This document shows positions 26,626 through 43,084 of a stretch of 64,000 bases of DNA, piece after piece. The first letter of the stretch is position 1; the number at the start of each line of letters is the position of its first letter. The notes beneath the pieces were generated by a model that was given only the letters and a program-made list of their open reading frames with translations, ran no database searches and had not been told where the DNA came from. The position numbers were made by a program, and so were the translations under genes. The DNA lies in the NCBI GenBank assembly GCA_963757945.1, contig CAVWTN010000002.1, forward strand, positions 458,262-522,261. The letters are read 5' to 3'. The stretch is from Vulcanimicrobiota bacterium (GTDB lineage Bacteria; Vulcanimicrobiota; Vulcanimicrobiia; Vulcanimicrobiales; Vulcanimicrobiaceae).

Positions 26626-27495
26626 TCAGCTTCGCCGCAGCGCGAGCGCGAGCAACGACGGCGTCGTCCCGATCTTGCCGAACTCCCACAGGTCGATCGC
26701 GTCGACGGCGACCTTCGCGGCGCGCAGCAGCGGGGGGACCGCGCGGAAACGGAGGTTCCCGATCACGCGCCCGCGCCCGAGCGCGAGCACGCCGGCGCCG
26801 TAATCGTCGCCGCGCGGCACTTCGATCGCCGTCAACCCGGCAAACGCGGCGCCCTGCACGAGCCCGGGCGAATACAGGATCGCTTCCTCATCGACGAAGG
26901 CGGCGACGGCCCGCAAGCGCACGGCATCCGCGGCTACGCCGACCTCGACGATGCGCCGCCCGATCCCGCGCGCGTACGCGGCGAGCTGCTCGCGCCCATG
27001 GGCGTTGCCGCGCCGCCCCGTCGGGATTCCCCCGGCCGATGGCCGTGCTTCACTGACACCGAGGTACAGCGCTTCCGGGCCGAGCAGCACGTCGCCGCCG
27101 TCGAGCAATCCGGGCGCTTCGATCCGGCCGACGATCGGCACGCCCGCCGTCGCCAGCGCCGCTTCGACGGCCGCGAGTTCGGTTCGCCGGGCTACGTCGC
27201 TGGGCCGCATCAAGAACGCGCCGCCCGGGAAGACGACCGCGAGATCCGCGACCGCGCTCGCATTCGGCAAGCCGGGCGTTTGGTCGATCGCGATCGTTTG
27301 GACGCCGTTGTAGTGCAGCGTGCCTTCGAAGATCGCGAATTGCTCGAGCGCGCGCGCGAAGATCGTCCCCGATTCGCCCTGAACGGGCTTCGCCCGTTCG
27401 ATCGCAGCCGACGGCCGCACGAGCAGCGCCGCCGCCAAGCGTGCGCCGTCATCTTCGACAAAGGGGCCCTTGATCTCGTTCGCTATGCTGACCAC
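26626..27495 (-). CDS. amidinotransferase-superfamily protein (dimethylarginine dimethylaminohydrolase-like)
   Basis: DDAH/arginine-deiminase-fold similarity across the length. The usual C-terminal catalytic Cys appears to be replaced (…GKIGTTPSLL), so it may be non-catalytic. Confidence 0.5.
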   Translation of the reverse strand: MVSIANEIKGPFVEDDGARLAAALLVRPSAAIERAKPVQGESGTIFARALEQFAIFEGTLHYNGVQTIAIDQTPGLPNASAVADLAVVFPGGAFLMRPSDVARRTELAAVEAALATAGVPIVGRIEAPGLLDGGDVLLGPEALYLGVSEARPSAGGIPTGRRGNAHGREQLAAYARGIGRRIVEVGVAADAVRLRAVAAFVDEEAILYSPGLVQGAAFAGLTAIEVPRGDDYGAGVLALGRGRVIGNLRFRAVPPLLRAAKVAVDAIDLWEFGKIGTTPSLLALALRRS

Positions 27496-27550: not shown

Positions 27551-27952
27551 TCAGCCTGAGCTTGCCGAAGGGGTCGAAGGGTCTGCACCGATGTCGAGGG
27601 TGATTCGGCCGCTTCCGTTGCAGGTGCAGCAGGCGAGGCCGCTGCCGGTGGCGCGAGCGATTCCGGAGCCTCGGCAGTTCGGGCAGGCTTGGGTTCGCTT
27701 CGGCACGCTGTGAACGCCGCGTCCGCCGCAGGCGCTGCAGGTCAAGCGCTTTTGCGGCTGCACGGCGGTCCCGCGGCACTCACCGCAGCGCACGAATGGT
27801 GCGCGCACGAGAATCATGCCCTCGCCGTGGCAGATCTCGCAGCGCGAGAGCGGGGAAAGGACCCCGAATGGATCCTTTCCCGTCCCGCGGCAGAACGCGC
27901 ACGCGACCTCATGGTACGCGGAGTTCGGGGTCCGGTTAGGCTGGATTGCCAC
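27551..27952 (-). CDS. DnaJ-type zinc-finger protein (six CxxCxGxG motifs), gas-vesicle-cluster associated, paralog 1
   Basis: 133 aa with repeated CxxC(x)GxG motifs ([48 protein letters not shown]). Paralog of 29608..29985. Confidence 0.6.
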   Translation of the reverse strand: MAIQPNRTPNSAYHEVACAFCRGTGKDPFGVLSPLSRCEICHGEGMILVRAPFVRCGECRGTAVQPQKRLTCSACGGRGVHSVPKRTQACPNCRGSGIARATGSGLACCTCNGSGRITLDIGADPSTPSASSG

Positions 27953-27964
27953 GCACGACCTCCA

Positions 27965-28636
27965 CTACGCGAGTCGAACTTGTTGCGTTGCGCTATCCGC
28001 CACGAGGTAGGTCAGCTTCTCCAACTTCTCGACTTGGTCGAAGAGCGAGAGAGCCTCGTGGTAATGCCCCTCGTTTTCGAAGACGTGCCCGAGTTCAAGG
28101 AGCCGATCGAACGCCTCGCGCCCCTCGATGCTGCCGGGATAGCGCCGCAGGAGCCGCGTGTATCCGTCGATCGCGGTGTGGATCAGCCCTTGTTCGTCCC
28201 AGGCTTGCGCTGCGCGAAGCAAGGCCACTCGGCCCGATGCCGCCGCGGCCAACTTCTGCAACGTGTGCAGGAACGAGGAATGACGTTCCGCCAGCGCCGT
28301 GCGAATTTCATCGTCCGACGCATAGACGCTGAAGGTCCCCGCGGGGAGCAACGTAAGGCGCCGCTGTAACGCGTCGACGACCCGGCCGTGATCGAACGTT
28401 ATCCGCCCGAGCCACGCGTCATCCTGGGCCAGCGTGCGCACGCGCTCCTGCGAAAATTCGTCGAGCGGAACGGCGCTGACGAGTGCGGCCAACTCGCCAT
28501 ACTCGATCGCGGTGAGCGGCGCCGATCCGTTGACGCCGAACGTGTCATCGGGCAGGCGGCTCTGGGCATCGGTCTGCTTCGCGATCCCGTAAAGGTACCA
28601 CCCGTGGTCCGGGGGCAAGCGGTGTTTCGTCATCAC
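27965..28636 (-). CDS. GvpL/GvpF-family N-terminal domain fused to a TPR-like C-terminal region
   Basis: N-terminal ~135 aa aligns with the gvpL at 31578..32423 (GHAWYLYGIAK…YGELAALVSAVPLDEF…FSVYASDD). The C-terminus diverges into TPR-like helices (AWDEQGLIHTAIDGYTRLLRRYPGS…GHYHEALSLFDQV). Confidence 0.65.
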   Translation of the reverse strand: MMTKHRLPPDHGWYLYGIAKQTDAQSRLPDDTFGVNGSAPLTAIEYGELAALVSAVPLDEFSQERVRTLAQDDAWLGRITFDHGRVVDALQRRLTLLPAGTFSVYASDDEIRTALAERHSSFLHTLQKLAAAASGRVALLRAAQAWDEQGLIHTAIDGYTRLLRRYPGSIEGREAFDRLLELGHVFENEGHYHEALSLFDQVEKLEKLTYLVADSATQQVRLA

Positions 28637-29031
28637 CGGCTCCCTCCGCGTGCGACGCCGGCTCGCCTGCGCGTGTAGCTGCTCCAGATGCGCGCCGTCT
28701 CGCTGCGTCGGCCGTGGAGGCCGCCGAGCAGACCGCGAACCTGCGCCCGGTTCTGTGCCGTTTCTGCCTCGAGCAGCGTTCGCTGGCGCTGTGCCGTTGC
28801 CGCAAGCTCGCGGCCGAAACCCGCGAGCAGCGTGGCGACCGCCCGGCTACGGACGGTCACGTCCTCTCTGAGCGCCTCTCGCAGCGAGGCATCCTCGCGC
28901 AGGCGCTCGCGCCCCAGCAGCTCGAGCTTTTGCGCGATCGCCGCCCGTCTGGCTGCAATCTCTAGCGAGCGTTCATCGTGCGCCTGCTCCAACCGATCGG
29001 TCAGCGCGCGCACGTCCGCGACTATTGCCAT
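28633..29031 (-). CDS. predicted coiled-coil gas-vesicle-associated protein ('GvpX' paralog 1, family not recognised)
   Basis: 132 aa, helical and Arg/Glu/Ala-rich. The first ~100 aa are paralogous to 37420..38013 (MAIVADVRALTDRLEQ…). ATG at 29031; the ORF's upstream extension is junk. Immediately downstream of gvpA1. Confidence 0.5.
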   Translation of the reverse strand: MAIVADVRALTDRLEQAHDERSLEIAARRAAIAQKLELLGRERLREDASLREALREDVTVRSRAVATLLAGFGRELAATAQRQRTLLEAETAQNRAQVRGLLGGLHGRRSETARIWSSYTRRRAGVARGGSR

Positions 29032-29168
29032 GTCGATCTCCCGAATCATTGAAGAAAAACAGTGCGAGGGGGCGCCGGCGTCTTTGCCGCCGATCGCTAC
29101 GCACGACCGGCATGCAAGCCCCGGCGCCCTTCGCTCGAGCTCGATCGACGAGCTCTTTGCCGCTCGTG

Positions 29169-29399
29169 CTATGCGGCGGCCGCCTGCGGTGCGGCGACGG
29201 ATGCCGTGAGCCCGATCGCTTCGGCATACTTGAGGTAGGTTTCGACCGACGCGACGACGGCGCGGATTTCGATCGCGAGCAATTCGATGCCGACCAGCGA
29301 CACGCGCACCCATGCGTCGATGACGAGGCCCTTGTCCAAGATGCGATCGACGACTTCCACGAGGCTCGACGAGCCGATTGCCTTCTCTACTTGTGCCAT
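29169..29399 (-). CDS. gvpA: gas vesicle structural protein GvpA (copy 1)
   Basis: 76 aa: [64 protein letters not shown]… is the canonical GvpA core. Confidence 0.92.
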
Positions 29400-29494
29400 T
29401 CTCAGCCAAGCTCCCTGTGACGAATAGCGGCCTTGACGCATTGCCGAAGCCGCTGGTTGGGGTCCCATCGCCATCCTATCCGGCGCTCGAGAAC

Positions 29495-29543
29495 TCAACA
29501 ACACTCGATCGAGGTACTGCGGACTATCCGGACGGATACAAAT
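29495..29543 (-). promoter_or_regulatory. conserved upstream element of gvpA copy 1 (CTCGATCGAG palindrome + TATCCG-N2-CGGATA inverted repeat)
   Basis: About 48 bp nearly identical to 38510..38558 upstream of gvpA copy 2, while the flanking intergenic DNA diverges. Confidence 0.5.
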
Positions 29544-29607
29544 CCGTGCGCCCTTCGAACCACGCGGGGCGCACGCCGCAGCGCGGGATCGCGCCTGGCT
29601 GGCGGCG

Positions 29608-29985
29608 TTACGAAGCCGAACCGCTATGCAACGTCACTCTGCCGCTGCCGGTACAGGTGGAACACGACAGATCGATCTCGCTTTCCGGATCGACGCCCGT
29701 ACCTTTGCAAACCGGGCACGCTTGGTTGTTCTTCGAGACGCTCTGCACGCCGCGCCCTCCGCACGCACTGCACGTCAGACGCTTGTGCGGCTGCGCGCCG
29801 GTACCATGGCATTCGCCGCAGCGCACGAACGGCACGTGCACGATGTTCTTGCCGACGCCCTGGCACGTCTCGCAGCGCGAAAGGTCGGAAAGGAGCCCGA
29901 ACGGATCCTTACCCGTACCGCTACAGAATGCGCATTCGACGGCCTGTTCGCCTGGTTTCGGAACTGGATTAGGCATTGGCTCCAA
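29608..29985 (-). CDS. DnaJ-type zinc-finger protein (CxxCxGxG repeats), paralog 2
   Basis: 125 aa ([48 protein letters not shown]). About 50% identical to 27551..27952. Overlaps the gvpJ stop. Confidence 0.6.
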
Positions 29986-37419: not shown

Positions 37420-38013
37420 TCAAGTTGCAAAGTAAATTTCGCGAACGTCGTCCTTACGGGCGCGGTTCTGCTCGATGAGTCCATCGATCGCATGACCGAC
37501 TCCCGCGCGCGATGCGTGGAAGTGACGCTCGATGTCGTGGATCTTCACGCCGTTTGGATGGCCGGCGAGGAACGTGAAGACCTTGTCCTGCAGAGCGGTT
37601 GAATGATGCTGGACGCTTGGTTTGGGGCCATCTTGCGTCACCGCTCTGAAGGCGTAGTAATTGCCCCAGATCCCGGCCGTCTCCACGCGATTGACGTGGA
37701 AGGCGTCAAGGAGCCGGCTGACCTGTGCCCGGTTCTCCGCCGCGTCGGCCTTGAGCTGCGCGTTCTGCTTCTTCGCCGTCGCAGCAAGCTCCCGATCGAA
37801 ACCGGCAAGCTGATCGGCGACCGACCGGCTACGGGCGACGACCTCGGTATGGAGCGCCGCTCGCAGCTCCGTCTGTTCTTGAGTCCGCTCGCGTTGGAAG
37901 CGCGAAAGCTTCTGCGAAATCGCCTGTCGTCTCGCCGCGATCTCTTGGAACCGCTCTTCGTGCGATTGCTCCAACCGATCCGTCAGTGCGCGCACGTCTG
38001 CAACTATTGCCAT
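37420..38013 (-). CDS. predicted coiled-coil gas-vesicle-associated protein ('GvpX' paralog 2) with extra C-terminal winged-helix-like domain
   Basis: 198 aa. The N-terminal ~110 aa are paralogous to 28633..29031 (MAIVADVRALTDRLEQSHEER…). C-terminal ~70 aa extension (…VFTFLAGHPNGVKIHDIERHFHASRAGVGHAIDGLIEQN…). RBS GGGGGAGA. Confidence 0.5.
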   Translation of the reverse strand: MAIVADVRALTDRLEQSHEERFQEIAARRQAISQKLSRFQRERTQEQTELRAALHTEVVARSRSVADQLAGFDRELAATAKKQNAQLKADAAENRAQVSRLLDAFHVNRVETAGIWGNYYAFRAVTQDGPKPSVQHHSTALQDKVFTFLAGHPNGVKIHDIERHFHASRAGVGHAIDGLIEQNRARKDDVREIYFAT

Positions 38014-38151
38014 CTGGATCTCCCCCGCTTGTTGCGGCGTTGCGAGAGGGGCGCCGGCGGCCTTCACGCTGCTCTCTGGGCGCGAGCAGCGTGTAGACCC
38101 CAGCGCCCTCCCTCAAGCTCGATATAGTCGAGCCTATCTCTACCGCTCGCG

Positions 38152-38382
38152 CTACGCGGCGACGGGCTGGGGTGCTGCGACCGATGCCGTAAGCCCGATC
38201 GCTTCGGCATACTTGAGATACGTCTCGACCGAGGCCACGACGGCGCGGATCTCGATAGCGAGCAACTCGATGCCGACGAGCGACACGCGCACCCATGCAT
38301 CGATGACAAGGCCCTTGTCCAGGATACGATCGACGACTTCCACGAGGCTCGATGAGCCGATTGCCTTCTCTACTTGTGCCAT
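38152..38382 (-). CDS. gvpA: gas vesicle structural protein GvpA (copy 2)
   Basis: 76 aa. Identical to copy 1 except for 2 C-terminal residues (…APQPVAA vs …APQAAAA); DNA about 88% identical, mostly synonymous changes. Confidence 0.92.
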
Positions 38383-38478
38383 TATTTAACGAAGCTCCCT
38401 GTGACAAATGGCGGCCAAGACACACTGCCGAGGCCACTGCTTGGGATTCGAGAAACCATGAACATCAGGTTTCCCTCC

Positions 38479-38558
38479 CTACGATGCATCGTAGTCGTAC
38501 GGCAGCGGCACAACAACACTCGATCGAGGTAGCGCGAGCTATCCGAACGGATACAATC
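38479..38558 (-). promoter_or_regulatory. gvpA copy-2 upstream region: 16-bp perfect palindrome CTACGATGCATCGTAG (38479..38494) plus conserved CTCGATCGAG / TATCCG-N2-CGGATA element (38510..38558)
   Basis: The conserved element is shared with 29495..29543. The 16-bp palindrome is unique to copy 2. It lies between the RR stop and gvpA2. Confidence 0.5.
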
Positions 38559-38564
38559 ATGCCG

Positions 38565-39221
38565 TCACTCCACCATTCCGACGCGCATCGCGAGGACCGC
38601 GACGTGCGTGCGATCGCGCGCGGCGAATTTTCCGATGATGCTCTGAACGTGCTTCTTGACGGTCACTTCAGCAAGACCGAGCTCGTCGCCGATGGCGCGA
38701 TTCGTCTTTCCGTCGACCAAAAGATCGAGCACCATTCGCTCGCGCTCGGTGAGATCGATCCCGGCCTTCTTCGCGGCGTTCGCCGGCGCCAGCGCCTCGT
38801 CCGCAAGCGCGCGCCGGATGACCGCATCTCTCACGACGATGTTGCCTTGACTGACTGCGGTGACGGTATGATACAAGAGATCGCGCGAGCAATCTTTGAG
38901 CAAATAGCCTGCCGCCCCGGCACACACCGCGCTCGTCACGAACGCATCGTCGCCGTAGCTGCTCATCATGATGACGGCGGTATCCCCGAAGGCTTCCTTG
39001 ATGCGACGCGCCGCATCCAAGCCGCCCATGCCCGGCATGCGCACGTCCATCAACACGACGTTCGGCCGCAGCCGTTCCACGCTCGCGATCGCGCTCTTTC
39101 CATCCTCCGCCTCGCCGACGACCTCGATCGCAGGATACGTCTCGAGCATGGCCCGCACGCCCTCGCGAACGACGAGATGGTCATCGACCAGCAGGACGGA
39201 GATGCGCGGCGTTGCGCTCAT
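38565..39221 (-). CDS. LuxR/NarL-family response regulator (REC + HTH)
   Basis: 219 aa. Receiver domain LLVDDH…VVLMDVRMPGMGG; C-terminal LuxR HTH (LTERERMVLDLLVDGKTNRAIGDELGLAEVTVKKH). Start at ATG 39221. Confidence 0.85.
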   Translation of the reverse strand: MSATPRISVLLVDDHLVVREGVRAMLETYPAIEVVGEAEDGKSAIASVERLRPNVVLMDVRMPGMGGLDAARRIKEAFGDTAVIMMSSYGDDAFVTSAVCAGAAGYLLKDCSRDLLYHTVTAVSQGNIVVRDAVIRRALADEALAPANAAKKAGIDLTERERMVLDLLVDGKTNRAIGDELGLAEVTVKKHVQSIIGKFAARDRTHVAVLAMRVGMVE

Positions 39222-39988
39222 CGCAAATGCTCCCGGGATTCGCTCGCCACGAACGAAGGCGCGCCGAGCGCGAGCGACGCCGGGACGATCACGGTCGTCG
39301 CGGTGCCCTTGCCTGGGGCGCTTTCCACGGTCAACGTGCCGTCGAGGAGTTCCGCACGCTTGGTCATGCTCAGCACGCCGAAATGCCGCGGTGCACGCTC
39401 TCCGATCAGCGTGGCGACATCGAAACCGGCGCCGTCGTCGAGCACGGTCCATTGGATCGTATCGCCTACGCGACGGAGCGTGGCCACGATCCGCGATGCA
39501 TTTGCATGTTTGACGACGTTTGTAATCGCCTCGTGAACGATGCGATAGAGCGCCGTCTCCACTTCCTTGGGAAAGTGCAGCGGAGCGAGTTCGTAATGAA
39601 CCGCCAGACCGTGGCTCTCGCGCAGCTCGTCCAGTTCGTGCTGGATTGTCGACACGAGCCCGACGTCGTCGAGCGCCGCCGGCCGCAGGCAGGCGACGAC
39701 CTCTCTGGCCTCCTGAAGTGCCTTGCGAACGCAACTCCCGGCACGATTCACGCTCGCCCGAACGTCGTCCGGCAAATTCGATCGTGCAACCACGACTTGA
39801 AGCTGCTGGAAGGCCGCGGTCAGCGTTTGCGTGAGACCATCGTGGATGTCCAAGCAAATTCGCTCGCGCTCCCGTTCCTGCGCCTCAAGCGTCTTCTGCA
39901 ACAGATAACGAACGCGTTGCTCCTGCTCTTGCAAAGCAGTGCGCAAGCCTGCGTCGTCGGCCTTCCTCTGCGCACTTATCTCAGACAT
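39218..39988 (-). CDS. sensor histidine kinase, HisKA_3 + HATPase_c, no TM or recognisable sensor domain
   Basis: 256 aa. H-box LDIHDGLTQTL about 45 aa from the N-terminus; ATPase motifs (ITNVVKHANA, DDGAGF, GLLSM). 4-bp overlap with the RR gene. Confidence 0.8.
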   Translation of the reverse strand: MSEISAQRKADDAGLRTALQEQEQRVRYLLQKTLEAQERERERICLDIHDGLTQTLTAAFQQLQVVVARSNLPDDVRASVNRAGSCVRKALQEAREVVACLRPAALDDVGLVSTIQHELDELRESHGLAVHYELAPLHFPKEVETALYRIVHEAITNVVKHANASRIVATLRRVGDTIQWTVLDDGAGFDVATLIGERAPRHFGVLSMTKRAELLDGTLTVESAPGKGTATTVIVPASLALGAPSFVASESREHLR

Positions 39989-40543
39989 ACGGGGCGAGCC
40001 TCGGAATCGCCCCGAATCTTAAGCCCGTTAATGATTCGGGCGTGGTGCACTGCCTGGCCTGATGGAACGTCGACATAGGCATTGCCGAACTCGGTACGGT
40101 GATCGTACTGAACTCGGCGGAAGTCCTTACCAGCAACGAGCATCGACATGCACATTTCAGCCTATTACTCGTTTTGCCCCGGAATGTGCACGGCAAACCC
40201 GCTTGTATGCGGCCTTCCCCGCCTGCGCCGCGACGCGCGTACGGCGGCACGCGACGTGCGCGCGGAATCCGTGCGCGAGCGCGGTGCTATTGCGGTGCGC
40301 GGCGAGAAAGCCACCAGCAGCAACCCTTGCGAATGAAGTGATCGGAAACGGCGGACGCCGATTCGTGTCTGGGAATCACCATGATACCAAACGGCGTTGA
40401 AAATACAGTCCCATGTATGGGGGATAATCCGGCGACCAGACGCGCAGTCACGCGAACGCCGCGGGTTCGGCTAGCCGTACTCGAGCAAAGATACGTGCGG
40501 TGCGCGTGCTGCTTGGGGAGCTATCCGAGCGCAGCCAAGTGCT
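39989..40543. other. 555-bp non-coding region with locally lower GC, upstream of the HK-RR-gvp genes
   Basis: No protein-like ORF on either strand. GC drops to roughly 50-55% around 40100-40450. Stem-loop GGGGCGA-9nt-TCGCCCC at 39990..40012. Confidence 0.4.
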
Positions 40544-43084
40544 TTATTTCGTCCGGCCTGCTAGCGCGACATATGGCGCCGCATCCGGCGCCGCCGTGAA
40601 GAAGTCGCGTAAGTCGGCGGCCAGCGCATCGCCGAGCGAGAGCGGCGGCAGCCCGAGCAGCTCCTCCTCCGTCTTCAGGACGCTCGCCGTGGAGAGATGA
40701 CGGCCGCCGAGGTAGTGCGGCTTCGCATACGGCGAGATGACGAGCGCGTAGCTTCTGTGCGCGTGAACGTGATCGCGCGAATTCTCCGCATCGTCGGGCA
40801 TGACGAAGATCGCGGTCTCCTTCCATTGCGGAAGATGCGTGAGAAACTCGACGATGCTCCCGAGCGCGGCGTCGCCGTCTTTGACTTGCTCGGCGAGAGA
40901 GGGCAGTCCGGGCGCGGCGGCACCGCGATCGCCCGGCAGCCAGATCTGCGTGAAGGCGGGGAAGCCGTTGGATGCGACCAGCTGCGAGAAGTCGGAGACG
41001 AACTCTTGCGCGCGCCGCGTATCGCGGATCGATGGGCTCCAGCCGGGATAGTCGAGGTCGATGCGCCCGGCGAGCGCCGCAAGCGCGGGGACGTCGAGCG
41101 AATAGACGCCGCCTAGCCCGGGTGCTTGCACGCTCGCTCCCGCGACGCTGCCCGTCGACGCGGTATACCCCGAGAGCCGCACGAGGTCGCCGTAATCGCG
41201 ATAGCTCAGGCGCTTACGCGCGAGCGCATCGAAGATGTAGCCGGCTCGCGGATAGTCCTCGGGATCTTGGCTGCTCGTAAACGGCAGGCGGCCGCGCTCG
41301 ATTCGCAGCGTTCGCTCGCTGAACGCCGTCGCGAGCCCCCCCGCGGCGAACTGGTGCGCCCCGTTCGATTCCTCAGCGTCCGCGTAAAAATTCGTAGCCA
41401 GCCCATACGTGCGGGCCAGCGCATGCAGATTCGGCGTGACGGATTCATCGAACGCCGTGAACGTGCGCTCGCCGTTGCCCCACGGTTTGCCCGCTGCATC
41501 CGTGAGATCGCCGAGCATCGCATCGTAGCTCTTGCTCTCTTCGAGAATCAACACGACGTGCTTGATCGCATGGCTCGCCTCGCCGGAAAAACCCTGCGGC
41601 ACGATCGGGTTCGCCGTCGCCCTGCGCGCGATGCGCACGTACGTCAGTGCCCGGCGCGTCACCCGGCCGAGATCCAGCGTGCCCAATTCGATCTTCTGCA
41701 GCGTCGCCCAGACCGCGCTGCTGTCCCCGGTGAATCCGGGTTCGTGATCCAGTCCCTTCGCGTTGGCGACGAGCAGCGTCGTATCGTTCGCGGTGAGCGC
41801 GAGCGCGCTCGGAGACCAGCCCGTGGGGATCAGGCCGATACGATGCGGCCGCACCGGATCGCGCACGTCGAGCACGGCGACGGCGTTCAGCCCCGCTAGC
41901 GCGACGTAGAGCCGCCGCTGGTCGGCGCCCAGCGCGAGCGCAACCGGCTGCGTGCCGTAGGGCGCGCGGTCGAACAATCGCAGCTCGGTCCCACCGACGA
42001 CGCGCGCGCGGCCCTTATCAAACCCCACCACCGCGATGCGATCGACGTTCGTCATCGTGACGAAGGCGTGCCGACCGTCGCGCGTGGCGACGACCGCGGT
42101 GGGATGCGCGCCGCCGATCGTCGCACGGCCGTCGGGCGGCCGATCCATCTCGAGAGCGTACGCGCGGCGCCCGTCGGGGATCCCCCCCGTCCCGAGCGGA
42201 ATGACGGAGAGCGAGGAGGATCGCCCGCGATCGATCCGCGCGCCGCGGAACTCGGGCGCTCCGAGCGCCGCCGGGAGCGCGCGATAGGCCGCGAGCCCCT
42301 CGTTCGAAACGAGCAGCCGCTCTCCGGCACGCGCTGCGCCGAAGGGGAAGTATCCGACGGGAATCACTGGGCCGGCGAGCGCGCGCGTCGCCGTGTCGAT
42401 CGTCGCAACGGTGTTCGCCATGTTGTTTATGACGTAGATCCGCGCGCCGTTCTGCGAGGGGACGAGCGTCCCGGGGAACGCGCGGCCGGCGGTCGCGAGG
42501 CGTGCATCCGCGGCGGGCGGCATCGGGATCATCGCGGCGATCGGATCGGGCGCCAGCCGCCCCGCCGCGTCCAGATCGAATGCGAGGACCGCATCGTTCG
42601 CGCCGCCGCTCGCGAAGACGAGCGTCCGGCCGCGATCGAGCGGGTCGGCGACCGCCACGATCCCGGCGAAGAACGTCGCATCGGGCGCGCGGTACTGGTC
42701 GACGAGCCGCATCGATGCGACGTCGACGACCGCGAGCGAATACCCGCCGTGGACGCGCGGATCGAGCGTGCTGATCGCGCCGCTTTGCCGGTCGTCGCAG
42801 TTCGCGACGATCGCATAGCGCCCGTCCGGGGTCAGCGCGAGACCCAGCGCGTTCGTCCCGACGAGCGTGCTGGTGCCTTCGGGAATGACCAAGCGCCCGG
42901 AGGGCAGGATCTGCGAGAACGGATCGGCTGGATCGAGCACGCCGGCCGGGCGGGTTCCCGCCGGCGGCTCGAAGGTAAGGAGCGCAACGGGCCGCGCCGT
43001 GGGGCGAGGCTGCGGATGCGCGCCGAGCAAGCTGACCGCAGCGACAAGCGCGGCCAAGAGGCGGAGTCTCACGTCATCCCGCAT
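40544..43084 (-). CDS. secreted fusion protein: YVTN-type beta-propeller repeats + C-terminal phosphoesterase-family (PLC/acid-phosphatase-like) domain
   Basis: 846 aa. Signal peptide. The N-terminal ~480 aa carry repeated beta-propeller YVTN/lactonase-like units. The C-terminus has phosphoesterase-family motifs (HVVLILEESKSYD…, …PDDAENSRDHVHAHRS). Confidence 0.65.
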   Translation of the reverse strand: MRDDVRLRLLAALVAAVSLLGAHPQPRPTARPVALLTFEPPAGTRPAGVLDPADPFSQILPSGRLVIPEGTSTLVGTNALGLALTPDGRYAIVANCDDRQSGAISTLDPRVHGGYSLAVVDVASMRLVDQYRAPDATFFAGIVAVADPLDRGRTLVFASGGANDAVLAFDLDAAGRLAPDPIAAMIPMPPAADARLATAGRAFPGTLVPSQNGARIYVINNMANTVATIDTATRALAGPVIPVGYFPFGAARAGERLLVSNEGLAAYRALPAALGAPEFRGARIDRGRSSSLSVIPLGTGGIPDGRRAYALEMDRPPDGRATIGGAHPTAVVATRDGRHAFVTMTNVDRIAVVGFDKGRARVVGGTELRLFDRAPYGTQPVALALGADQRRLYVALAGLNAVAVLDVRDPVRPHRIGLIPTGWSPSALALTANDTTLLVANAKGLDHEPGFTGDSSAVWATLQKIELGTLDLGRVTRRALTYVRIARRATANPIVPQGFSGEASHAIKHVVLILEESKSYDAMLGDLTDAAGKPWGNGERTFTAFDESVTPNLHALARTYGLATNFYADAEESNGAHQFAAGGLATAFSERTLRIERGRLPFTSSQDPEDYPRAGYIFDALARKRLSYRDYGDLVRLSGYTASTGSVAGASVQAPGLGGVYSLDVPALAALAGRIDLDYPGWSPSIRDTRRAQEFVSDFSQLVASNGFPAFTQIWLPGDRGAAAPGLPSLAEQVKDGDAALGSIVEFLTHLPQWKETAIFVMPDDAENSRDHVHAHRSYALVISPYAKPHYLGGRHLSTASVLKTEEELLGLPPLSLGDALAADLRDFFTAAPDAAPYVALAGRTK

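Follow-up and report, generated by a model that had tools for sequence, protein, structure and literature searches.

A conserved two-block element upstream of both gvpA genes in a Vulcanimicrobiota gas-vesicle locus, a candidate operator of the adjacent NarL-type response regulator

A 64,000-nucleotide stretch of DNA from a Vulcanimicrobiota bacterium (GenBank assembly GCA_963757945.1, contig CAVWTN010000002.1, positions 458,262 to 522,261), referred to here as the window, carries two copies of a gas-vesicle (gvp) gene cluster, and a short, nearly identical non-coding element precedes the gvpA gene in each. We describe this element as a candidate regulatory module of both gvpA promoters, and the NarL-type response regulator (RR) encoded beside one copy as the candidate protein that binds it. 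The gvp-region genes, from the histidine kinase (HK) gene through the second zinc-finger gene, are all on the minus strand; those on which the argument depends are listed below, with lengths in amino acids (aa).

40547..43084, minus strand: phosphoesterase-family protein, first in transcriptional order and upstream of the HK gene
39221..39988, minus strand: HisKA_3 histidine kinase (HK), 256 aa, with Pfam HisKA_3 and HATPase_c domains
38568..39221, minus strand: NarL/LuxR-type RR with a REC domain and a GerE helix-turn-helix (HTH) by Pfam, the candidate trans-acting factor
38155..38382, minus strand: gvpA2, 76 aa, Pfam Gas_vesicle
37423..38022, minus strand: gene X2, directly after gvpA2, with a long N-terminal helix/repeat region and a C-terminal winged-helix-like domain
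29611..29985, minus strand: DnaJ-type CxxCxGxG zinc-finger protein, just before element copy 1
29172..29399, minus strand: gvpA1, 76 aa, Pfam Gas_vesicle
28636..29046, minus strand: gene X1, a paralog of X2, after gvpA1

The HK and RR genes overlap by 4 nucleotides (nt), and a gap of 555 nt separates the phosphoesterase gene from the HK gene. X2 is followed, in order, by genes for a GvpN-like AAA_5 protein, a 99-aa open reading frame (ORF) and an HSP20/GvpH-like protein, and then by those for a CDC48-type AAA+ protein, two GvpF/L proteins, a GvpK fusion and a GvpJ-like protein. Downstream of gvpA1 lie X1, a GvpF/L-TPR gene and the second zinc-finger gene. Copy 2 of the element is placed between RR and gvpA2, and copy 1 between the first zinc-finger gene and gvpA1.

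An earlier note on this DNA had pointed out two near-identical strings, and these are indeed present, each offset by 1 nt, at 29496..29544 (49 nt) and 38511..38558 (48 nt). Both contain the 10-bp palindrome CTCGATCGAG (29504..29513 and 38519..38528) and the inverted repeat TATCCG-NN-CGGATA (29525..29538 and 38540..38553) that the note described. Because all of the genes are on the minus strand, the elements lie 97-145 nt (copy 1) and 129-176 nt (copy 2) upstream of the gvpA ATGs, close to the 100-180 bp proposed before, and copy 2 does adjoin the RR gene, ending 6 nt from its stop codon (38565..38567). Read in the direction of gvpA, the anatomy is TTG-TATCCGT(C/T)CGGATA-G, 7 variable nt, TACCTCGATCGAGTGT, TGTTG and 17 variable nt, TA(G/C)GAT, the leader and the ATG. 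We refer to TGTATCCGT(T/C)CGGATAG, which holds a 14-bp palindrome, as block A, and to TACCTCGATCGAGTGT as block B; the spacer between them is 8 nt, and block B is followed after exactly 22 variable nt by TA(G/C)GAT. The parts, including the putative promoter hexamers discussed below, are as follows.

29525..29538, minus strand: block A of copy 1, TATCCGTCCGGATA, with flanks TTG...G (29524..29541); putative primary regulator site
38540..38553, minus strand: block A of copy 2, TATCCGTTCGGATA
29501..29516, minus strand: block B of copy 1, TACCTCGATCGAGTGT, holding the 10-bp palindrome; putative secondary site abutting the -35
38516..38531, minus strand: block B of copy 2, TACCTCGATCGAGTGT, holding the 10-bp palindrome
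29496..29501, minus strand: putative weak -35 of copy 1, TTGTTG, with a 17-nt spacer to the -10, placed from the fixed 22-nt GAGTGT-to-(-10) spacing
38511..38516, minus strand: putative -35 of copy 2, TTGTTG
29473..29478, minus strand: putative -10 of copy 1, TAGGAT, conserved in orthologs
38488..38493, minus strand: putative -10 of copy 2, TACGAT

Copy 1 also has an extra CGGAT half-site 5 nt upstream of block A (ACGGAT-TTGT-ATCCGT; 29539..29549), giving three half-sites in a row, which may be chance.

The element is restricted to these two places. A 35-nt degenerate pattern covering both palindromes, with up to three mismatches allowed, matched the window twice against an expectation of zero from 100 shuffles, and TATCCGNNCGGATA and TACCTCGATCGAGTGT, with no mismatch allowed, each occurred only at these two sites in the 64 kb, both upstream of gvpA. 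A generic intergenic repeat of the REP or MITE kind was therefore rejected, as there are two copies in 64 kb and the element is linked to gvpA in related loci.

A comparison of the two copies shows that the blocks are set in sequence that is otherwise largely dissimilar. Block A is identical at 13/14 positions and block B at 16/16, and the 10 nt upstream of block A show 40% identity; further upstream, no alignment of the copies was better than that of shuffled sequence. The proposal that the rest of the two intergenic regions has diverged holds for the 8-nt and 22-nt spacers, which are 50% and 41% identical, but not for the -10-like hexamer (TAGGAT/TACGAT) or for about 70 nt beside the ATG, comprising a leader hairpin and the Shine-Dalgarno (SD) sequence, all of which are kept between copies. 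A remnant of the RR 3' end upstream of copy 1 was not significant, the local alignment scoring 20 against 16.2 +/- 2.3 for shuffled sequence, with 51 of 500 shuffles scoring as high.

Cluster 1 arose by an old duplication of cluster 2 and is a condensed version of it. It consists of the promoter, gvpA1, X1, the GvpF/L-TPR fusion and a zinc-finger gene (window 27596..29544), and it is 76% identical to cluster 2 in nucleotide sequence over the leader, gvpA and X, with protein identities of about 62% for X1/X2, 54% for GvpF/L and 63% for the zinc-finger proteins. Downstream of the element, the similarity runs through the proximal leader, gvpA and a post-stop hairpin into the next gene. In the related locus L002, the zinc-finger gene is directly followed by the ortholog of window 26629..27495 (L002:20223..), with no intervening module, so 27596..29544 is an extra, lineage-specific copy. 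The only identical copy of cluster 1 came from a different run of the same organism (L215), which is present in SRR27973230 and SRR27943411, and exact look-ups of the GvpA1 and GvpA2 proteins gave matches from this organism alone.

Blocks A and B have outlasted a divergence that erased the spacers. Both copies front paralogous genes within one duplicated cluster, and the blocks could in principle be a functionless leftover of recent duplication or gene conversion. We regard this as extremely unlikely, as the blocks are nearly 100% identical whereas the spacers set among them match no better than random sequence, the proteins encoded by the co-duplicated genes have only 54-63% identity left, and orthologous loci with RR identities as low as 60% still carry the same blocks.

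That conservation was examined in 11 orthologous or paralogous HK-RR-gvpA loci with RR identities of 60-100%. Their distinct intergenic regions are those of L002 (the same as L003-L005), L006, L007 (nearly the same as L008), L092, L009, L093, L010 and L094, together with a partial paralogous copy in L009. RR orthologs are 79-87% identical to the window RR in P0002-P0009 and 60-63% in P0010 and P0011; by locus, identity is 79-87% in L002-L009, L092 and L093, 60-63% in L010 and L094, and 47-57% in the more distant L011-L013. Close orthologs of the RR come only from metagenome contigs or metagenome-assembled genomes (MAGs). Its nearest named relatives are in Chloroflexi MAGs at about 57% identity, and a genome scan with the RR returned, among the matches listed, relatives of at most 51% identity. 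Taken together, the nearest named RR and gvp relatives belong to Chloroflexi and Dehalococcoidia MAGs, from which a kinship of the host with Chloroflexota seemed probable; glycogen phosphorylase homologs, with named matches in Verrucomicrobia at about 70% identity, were uninformative. Gene order HK-RR-gvpA-X-GvpN is the same in every sufficiently long contig, the (phosphoesterase)-HK-RR-gvpA synteny is kept in every relative recovered, and the element always lies between the HK-RR operon and gvpA. Apart from the partial L009 duplicate, the palindrome occurs in these loci only upstream of gvpA.

When the nine distinct sequences are compared pairwise, block A has a mean identity of 0.94, the -10 one of 0.96 and GAGTGT one of 1.00. 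The left part of block B reaches 0.73, and the values fall to 0.52 in the 8-nt spacer, 0.48 in the 22-nt spacer and 0.55 in the 10 nt that precede block A. Across the aligned relatives GTATCCGTTCG(G/A)(A/G)TA and TAGGAT are nearly invariant and GAGTGT is invariant, and the distance from GAGTGT to the -10 is exactly 22 nt in all close relatives as well as in L011, L012 and L094. Block A is retained in all orthologs with an RR identity of at least 60%. Its TATCCG-NN-CGGATA is perfect in both window copies and in L002, L007, L010, L092, L093 and L094, and single substitutions are found in L006 (GGATA to GAATA) and L009 (GGATA to GGGTA). In L010 and L094, with RR identities of 60-63%, almost all of the intergenic sequence besides block A has changed and cannot be aligned, but block A is still a perfect palindrome, and even one of 16 bp (CTATCCGATCGGATAG and TTATCCGTTCGGATAA). 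At RR identities of 47-57% (L011-L013) the RR still adjoins gvpA and block A is degenerate (ATCC-N4/5-GGAC); the core (G/A)(A/G)GTGT-N22-TA(G/C)GAT survives in L011 and L012, and the -10 hexamer is kept in all orthologs, including these distant ones.

The bipartite palindrome proposed in the earlier note was thus only half upheld: TATCCG-NN-CGGATA is conserved in relatives, but the palindromy of CTCGATCGAG is not kept in several of them. The corresponding position reads TACCTGATCGAGTGT in L002-L005, with a one-base deletion, TACCTGACCGAGTGT in L006 and ACCCCATCGGGT in L010, and is occupied by a different palindrome, ACACTCCATCGAGTGT, in L093. What is conserved within block B is TAC(C), 8 nt after block A even in L094, and GAGTGT, 22 nt before the -10. 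L094 has 22 extra bp between TAC(C) and GAGTGT, which places the center of block A near -87.5 rather than -65.5, about two helical turns farther away; this favors viewing block B as two parts that meet, one associated with the regulator and the other with the promoter.

Upstream regions of other gvpA genes served as a negative control. None of 124 such regions in the metagenome scan, among the matches listed, had block A or block B; this set came from a scan with a degenerate gvpA 5' pattern and consists mostly of MAVEKAIGS-type gvpA genes from other taxa. The element is a selectively maintained, non-repetitive DNA-level motif with a dyad symmetry that suits a dimeric HTH protein, as the earlier note had suggested, and it is very probably a functional cis-regulatory module of the gvpA promoters, with block A as the best candidate operator.

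The partial copy in L009 (L009:2225..2400) is a third, paralogous instance of the same architecture. An RR gene is represented in it by the final ~60 nt. Block A has the G variant also found in the main copy of L009, block B is a GACC variant, and the 22-nt spacer, TAGGAT and a stub of the leader are present as well; unrelated sequence and an 87-aa ORF follow, with no gvpA.

The conserved hexamer provides a reference point for the layout of the module. TAnnnT is a typical -10 in high-GC bacteria, and TA(G/C)GAT fits it; we infer that this hexamer is the gvpA promoter -10. With the hexamer taken as -12..-7, transcription would start near 29466 and 38481, giving leaders of about 67 nt (gvpA1) and 99 nt (gvpA2). 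Relative to these putative starts, block B spans -50..-35, centered at -42.5, and block A spans -72..-59, centered at -65.5 (-64.5 to -66.5 in relatives), so that the block centers are about 23 bp apart (22-24 in relatives). The putative -35 TTGTTG matches 3/6 positions in the window and fewer in some relatives.

In another reading the blocks are core-promoter elements, such as an UP-like sequence or a -35 of extended or unusual form read by an alternative sigma factor, with no dedicated regulator. The exact 22-nt distance between GAGTGT and the -10 in all relatives, including distant ones in which block A is degenerate, would be consistent with this, as would the poor conservation of the TTG of the putative -35 in L002 and L006. 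However, no sigma or alpha-subunit C-terminal domain element is known that takes the form of a perfect 14-bp palindrome at -65, and the 22-bp shift of block A relative to the -10 in L094 fits an upstream activator site rather than a core element. We know of no sigma consensus that matches (sigma-54, ECF, SigB/F and sigma-28 were considered), and an explanation by core-promoter elements appears unlikely.

A sigma-54 promoter with an upstream activating sequence for an enhancer-binding protein was also considered. The copy 1 leader contains GGC-N8-TGC, but the GG-N10-GC pattern is absent from copy 2 and from the orthologs, in which GT or CG occupies position -12, and the sigma-54 reading was rejected because the motif is not conserved. 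The cluster encodes no Sigma54_activat regulator, the sole match being sub-threshold and inside the CDC48-type AAA+ protein.

As copy 2 abuts the RR stop codon, the element might instead act as RNA, either as a terminator or processing hairpin ending the HK-RR transcript or as part of a long gvpA leader. The arms of block A are able to form a 5-6-bp hairpin, and the copy 2 region folds with a z-score of -1.96. Yet folds of the two copies and two orthologs differ (z = -0.65, -1.96, +1.44 and -1.35), a 2-nt loop is sterically poor for such a hairpin, and the block A variants of L006 and L009 are one-sided or break pairing rather than compensating. Copy 1 follows a different gene than copy 2, no terminator-like site or U-tract terminator was found at the element, and there was no Rfam match anywhere near it. 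An intrinsic terminator or structured RNA was rejected on the absence of terminator sites, the inconsistent folds and the lack of an Rfam family, and an RNA-level role of any kind seems very unlikely.

A regulator with the expected properties is encoded next to copy 2. The RR matches Response_reg (1.8e-27) and GerE (4.4e-15) in Pfam, has its phospho-acceptor at Asp59 by alignment position, and has VraR, NarL and DevR (3c3w) as its closest solved relatives. Features anticipated for an operator of such a protein were found here: a REC plus GerE/LuxR RR with a HisKA_3 kinase in the same locus, a short dyad-symmetric inverted repeat (14-20 bp) in the form of TATCCG-NN-CGGATA, and a phylogenetic footprint, that is, a site maintained by selection in orthologous regulatory regions. 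At the positions assigned above there is also a two-site arrangement, with the conserved block A followed, about two helical turns on, by a less conserved block B that abuts a putative weak -35. The RR is favored as the binder because of its adjacency and the conservation of synteny over a wide identity range, because the site geometry and promoter layout are typical of the family, and because the recognition helix TVKKHVQSII, invariant across all orthologs, matches an invariant site core. Since the blocks are also conserved at copy 1, which is unlinked to the RR gene, a trans-acting factor would be needed. We lean, with modest confidence and from sequence evidence, toward the adjacent NarL-type RR binding the element and activating both gvpA promoters, which would be the most economical explanation. 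The element would then be the upstream half of an activator-dependent gvpA promoter, with block B as a more degenerate second site. In such a scheme the sensor-less HisKA_3 kinase would phosphorylate the RR on Asp59, and a phosphorylated dimer would occupy block A as its high-affinity site and from there help to bring either a second dimer or RNA polymerase to block B and the -35. The outcome would be expression of gvpA2 and the downstream gvp genes in cis and of the duplicated gvpA1 module in trans.

Several points weigh against assigning the element to the RR. The link between RR and motif consists of adjacency and co-occurrence, which are confounded by phylogeny, and since the recognition helix is invariant, covariation of protein and site carries no information. 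The geometry of block A is 14 bp (6-2-6) and not the 7-2-7 of NarL, and block B varies between 15 and 17 nt among relatives, a variation that does not sit well with a strict dimer site. Beyond ..YYCG beside the dyad, blocks A and B have little in common in their half-sites; the two blocks may therefore bind different proteins. The promoter itself is placed from conservation alone, and a sigma-70 consensus scanner made no call at it because the -35 matches only 3/6 positions. Finally, the operon encodes another possible DNA-binding domain, in X2.

The RR is therefore not the sole candidate: the element could be a real operator for another binder, with X2 acting as an autoregulator, an unlinked transcription factor taking the role, or RR and X2 each binding one block, the last being compatible with the differing half-sites. 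The C-terminal domain of X2 (LQDKVFTFLAGHPNGVK..IEQNRARKD..), about 60 aa, is the best-conserved part of its family and recurs beside gvpA in distant loci (L011-L013, L096, L101, L105, L106, L128, L147, L148 and L173), unrelated low-GC gvp loci among them. MarR_2 is matched at the same C-terminal position in X2 and its L002 ortholog (E~0.006), and EarA in L002 (E 9e-4). An AlphaFold model of the domain has three helices, and its top Foldseek matches are nearly all winged-helix DNA-binding domains (GntR-type domains, Z-alpha, MarR, PurR and FapR). However, all of these matches are sub-significant, with Pfam scores below gathering cut-offs, Foldseek E-values of at least 0.25 and a model pLDDT of 72; no Pfam family was matched at threshold, and a PDB sequence search gave nothing meaningful. 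Winged-helix folds also serve protein-protein contacts, and X-type domains are present in gvp loci without blocks A and B. The number of N-terminal repeats in X2 varies, homologs having 197-333 aa, or 450 aa in L011 and L012, and the paralog X1 lacks the C-terminal winged-helix-like domain, which together suggest that X2 may be a GvpC-like structural protein. A binder other than the RR alone is thus possible, though it is the less probable assignment.

A specific combination, in which the RR binds block A, the winged-helix-like domain of X2 binds block B at the -35 and unassembled X2 feeds back on gvpA transcription, is speculative and improbable. If true, it would be an assembly checkpoint that couples gas-vesicle wall construction to gvpA expression, and gvpA1, with its domain-less partner X1, would escape or modify the feedback loop.

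A comparison of the predicted RR-activated promoter with characterized systems shows both parallels and disparities. Promoters of Bacillus subtilis ComA have a conserved inverted repeat in a class-I position and a degenerate second site beside a poorly conserved -35; activation depends on both sites, and within the second site conservation is higher in the first half (PMC4797271). The gvpA element likewise has a well-conserved upstream hexamer inverted repeat and, at a short fixed distance, a degenerate downstream site next to a weak -35, with the first half of that site better conserved than the second. Unlike ComA, for which the repeat is TTGCGG-N4-CCGCAA and the second site a direct repeat, the gvpA element has TATCCG-N2-CGGATA and a second site resembling an imperfect inverted repeat, its target is a gas-vesicle structural gene, and binding is only predicted. 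DevR/DosR of Mycobacterium tuberculosis uses a conserved primary box to nucleate cooperative binding to a poorly conserved secondary box, and at tgs1 the boxes lie at -63.5 and -42.5, in helical phase (PMC3177182). The gvpA element shares the arrangement of two adjacent boxes, with putative positions of -65.5 and -42.5 close to those at tgs1, but Dev boxes are 18-20-bp palindromes (GGGAC..GTCCC), and the center-to-center distance here is 23 bp (22-24 in relatives) against 21.

NarL sites of Escherichia coli are 7-2-7 heptamers, TACYYMT-NN-AKRRGTA. The gvpA element resembles them in its dyad symmetry, TA-initial half-sites and pyrimidine-rich core, and block B, at 16 bp, has the length of a 7-2-7 site and a left heptamer (TACCTCG) fitting TACYYMT at 6/7 positions. 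Unlike NarL sites, block A is 14 bp (6-2-6 or 7-0-7), and the right heptamer of block B (reverse complement ACACTCG) fits poorly. With block A at 14 bp and one heptamer only in a block B of 15-17 nt, a NarL-type 7-2-7 site was rejected as a description of the element. Among dedicated gas-vesicle regulators, GvpE of haloarchaea is an archaeal bZIP-like activator, and GvrA, from Serratia sp. ATCC 39006, is of the NtrC type and depends on sigma-54. The candidate described here resembles GvpE/GvpD and GvrA/B/C in being a dedicated regulator in or beside the gvp cluster that would act on the gvpA promoter; unlike GvpE and GvrA, it is a NarL-type RR paired with a sigma-70-like promoter, and we found no homology to the GvpE/GvpD or GvrA/B/C systems. 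Regulation of gas vesicles in Serratia has been reviewed (PMC11778176).

The predicted layout is a known sort of gene switch, and its novelty is limited to the lineage and to the gas-vesicle genes, with no new regulatory principle. To our knowledge, haloarchaea, Serratia and a few cyanobacteria are the only organisms in which the control of gas-vesicle genes has been dissected, and the literature searched contained no paper linking a NarL-type two-component system to gvp genes. The element provides a cis-code that can be tested (TATCCG-NN-CGGATA, 8 nt, TAC(C)..GAGTGT, 22 nt, TAnGAT), and the neighboring HK and RR form a candidate pair that would control buoyancy in an uncultured, high-GC lineage. 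A compact inducible promoter-regulator pair of this kind could be tried in heterologous expression of gas-vesicle clusters.

The leaders that follow the putative promoters differ between the two copies:

29400..29472, minus strand: gvpA1 leader, with hairpin 2 (AGCGGC..GCCGCU) and SD AGGGAG, without hairpin 1 of the ancestral leader
38383..38487, minus strand: gvpA2 leader, with two hairpins and an SD

Two leader hairpins are present in gvpA2 and all orthologs, GGGA..AGGAGC/GCUUCU..UCCC followed by G(Y)GGCC/GGCCGC, with variants that are one-sided or wobble only; in the gvpA1 leader, hairpin 1 has been lost exactly between GGGA and CCC. RNAalifold gives an alternative in which UCCC pairs with the SD GGGA, and single-sequence folding z-scores of the leaders were not significant. 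A further hairpin lies just past the gvpA stop in both copies (29137..29155 and 38117..38133), with differing stems (GAGCUCG/CGAGCUC and GCUCGA/UCGAGC) and no U-tract; it may be an attenuator or stabilizer separating gvpA from the downstream genes.

At the other end of the locus, a non-coding gap upstream of the HK-RR operon, 400-575 nt in four loci (window 39989..40546), holds a conserved, promoter-like island, TATCCCCCATA..GGGACTGT-N18-TATCAT, with a TATCC half-site just upstream, and a further island, GCGGGTTTG..GGGCAGGACGAGTAGTAGGC..GCATGTC. These islands may represent a small ORF, an RNA or a site of autoregulation. The HK is 256-260 aa in all close orthologs, with about 40 residues preceding the HisKA_3 domain and no recognizable sensor or transmembrane domain; the more distant HK homolog of L011 has GAF domains. 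The zinc-finger paralogs (29611..29985 and 27599..27940, both minus strand) are of the DnaJ CxxCxGxG type without a J domain, and one closes each gvp cluster copy, the same gene terminating the cluster in L002.

Five low-GC metagenome contigs (L134, L138, L142, L171 and L181) carry unrelated gvpA loci with a NarL-type RR of about 31% identity located 400-650 nt upstream of gvpA. In these loci a long imperfect hairpin containing an ATAGCC-N3/4-GGCTAT palindrome follows right after the RR stop, with outer-stem differences that are apparently compensatory between loci, and it looks more RNA-like or terminator-like than the gvpA element studied here.

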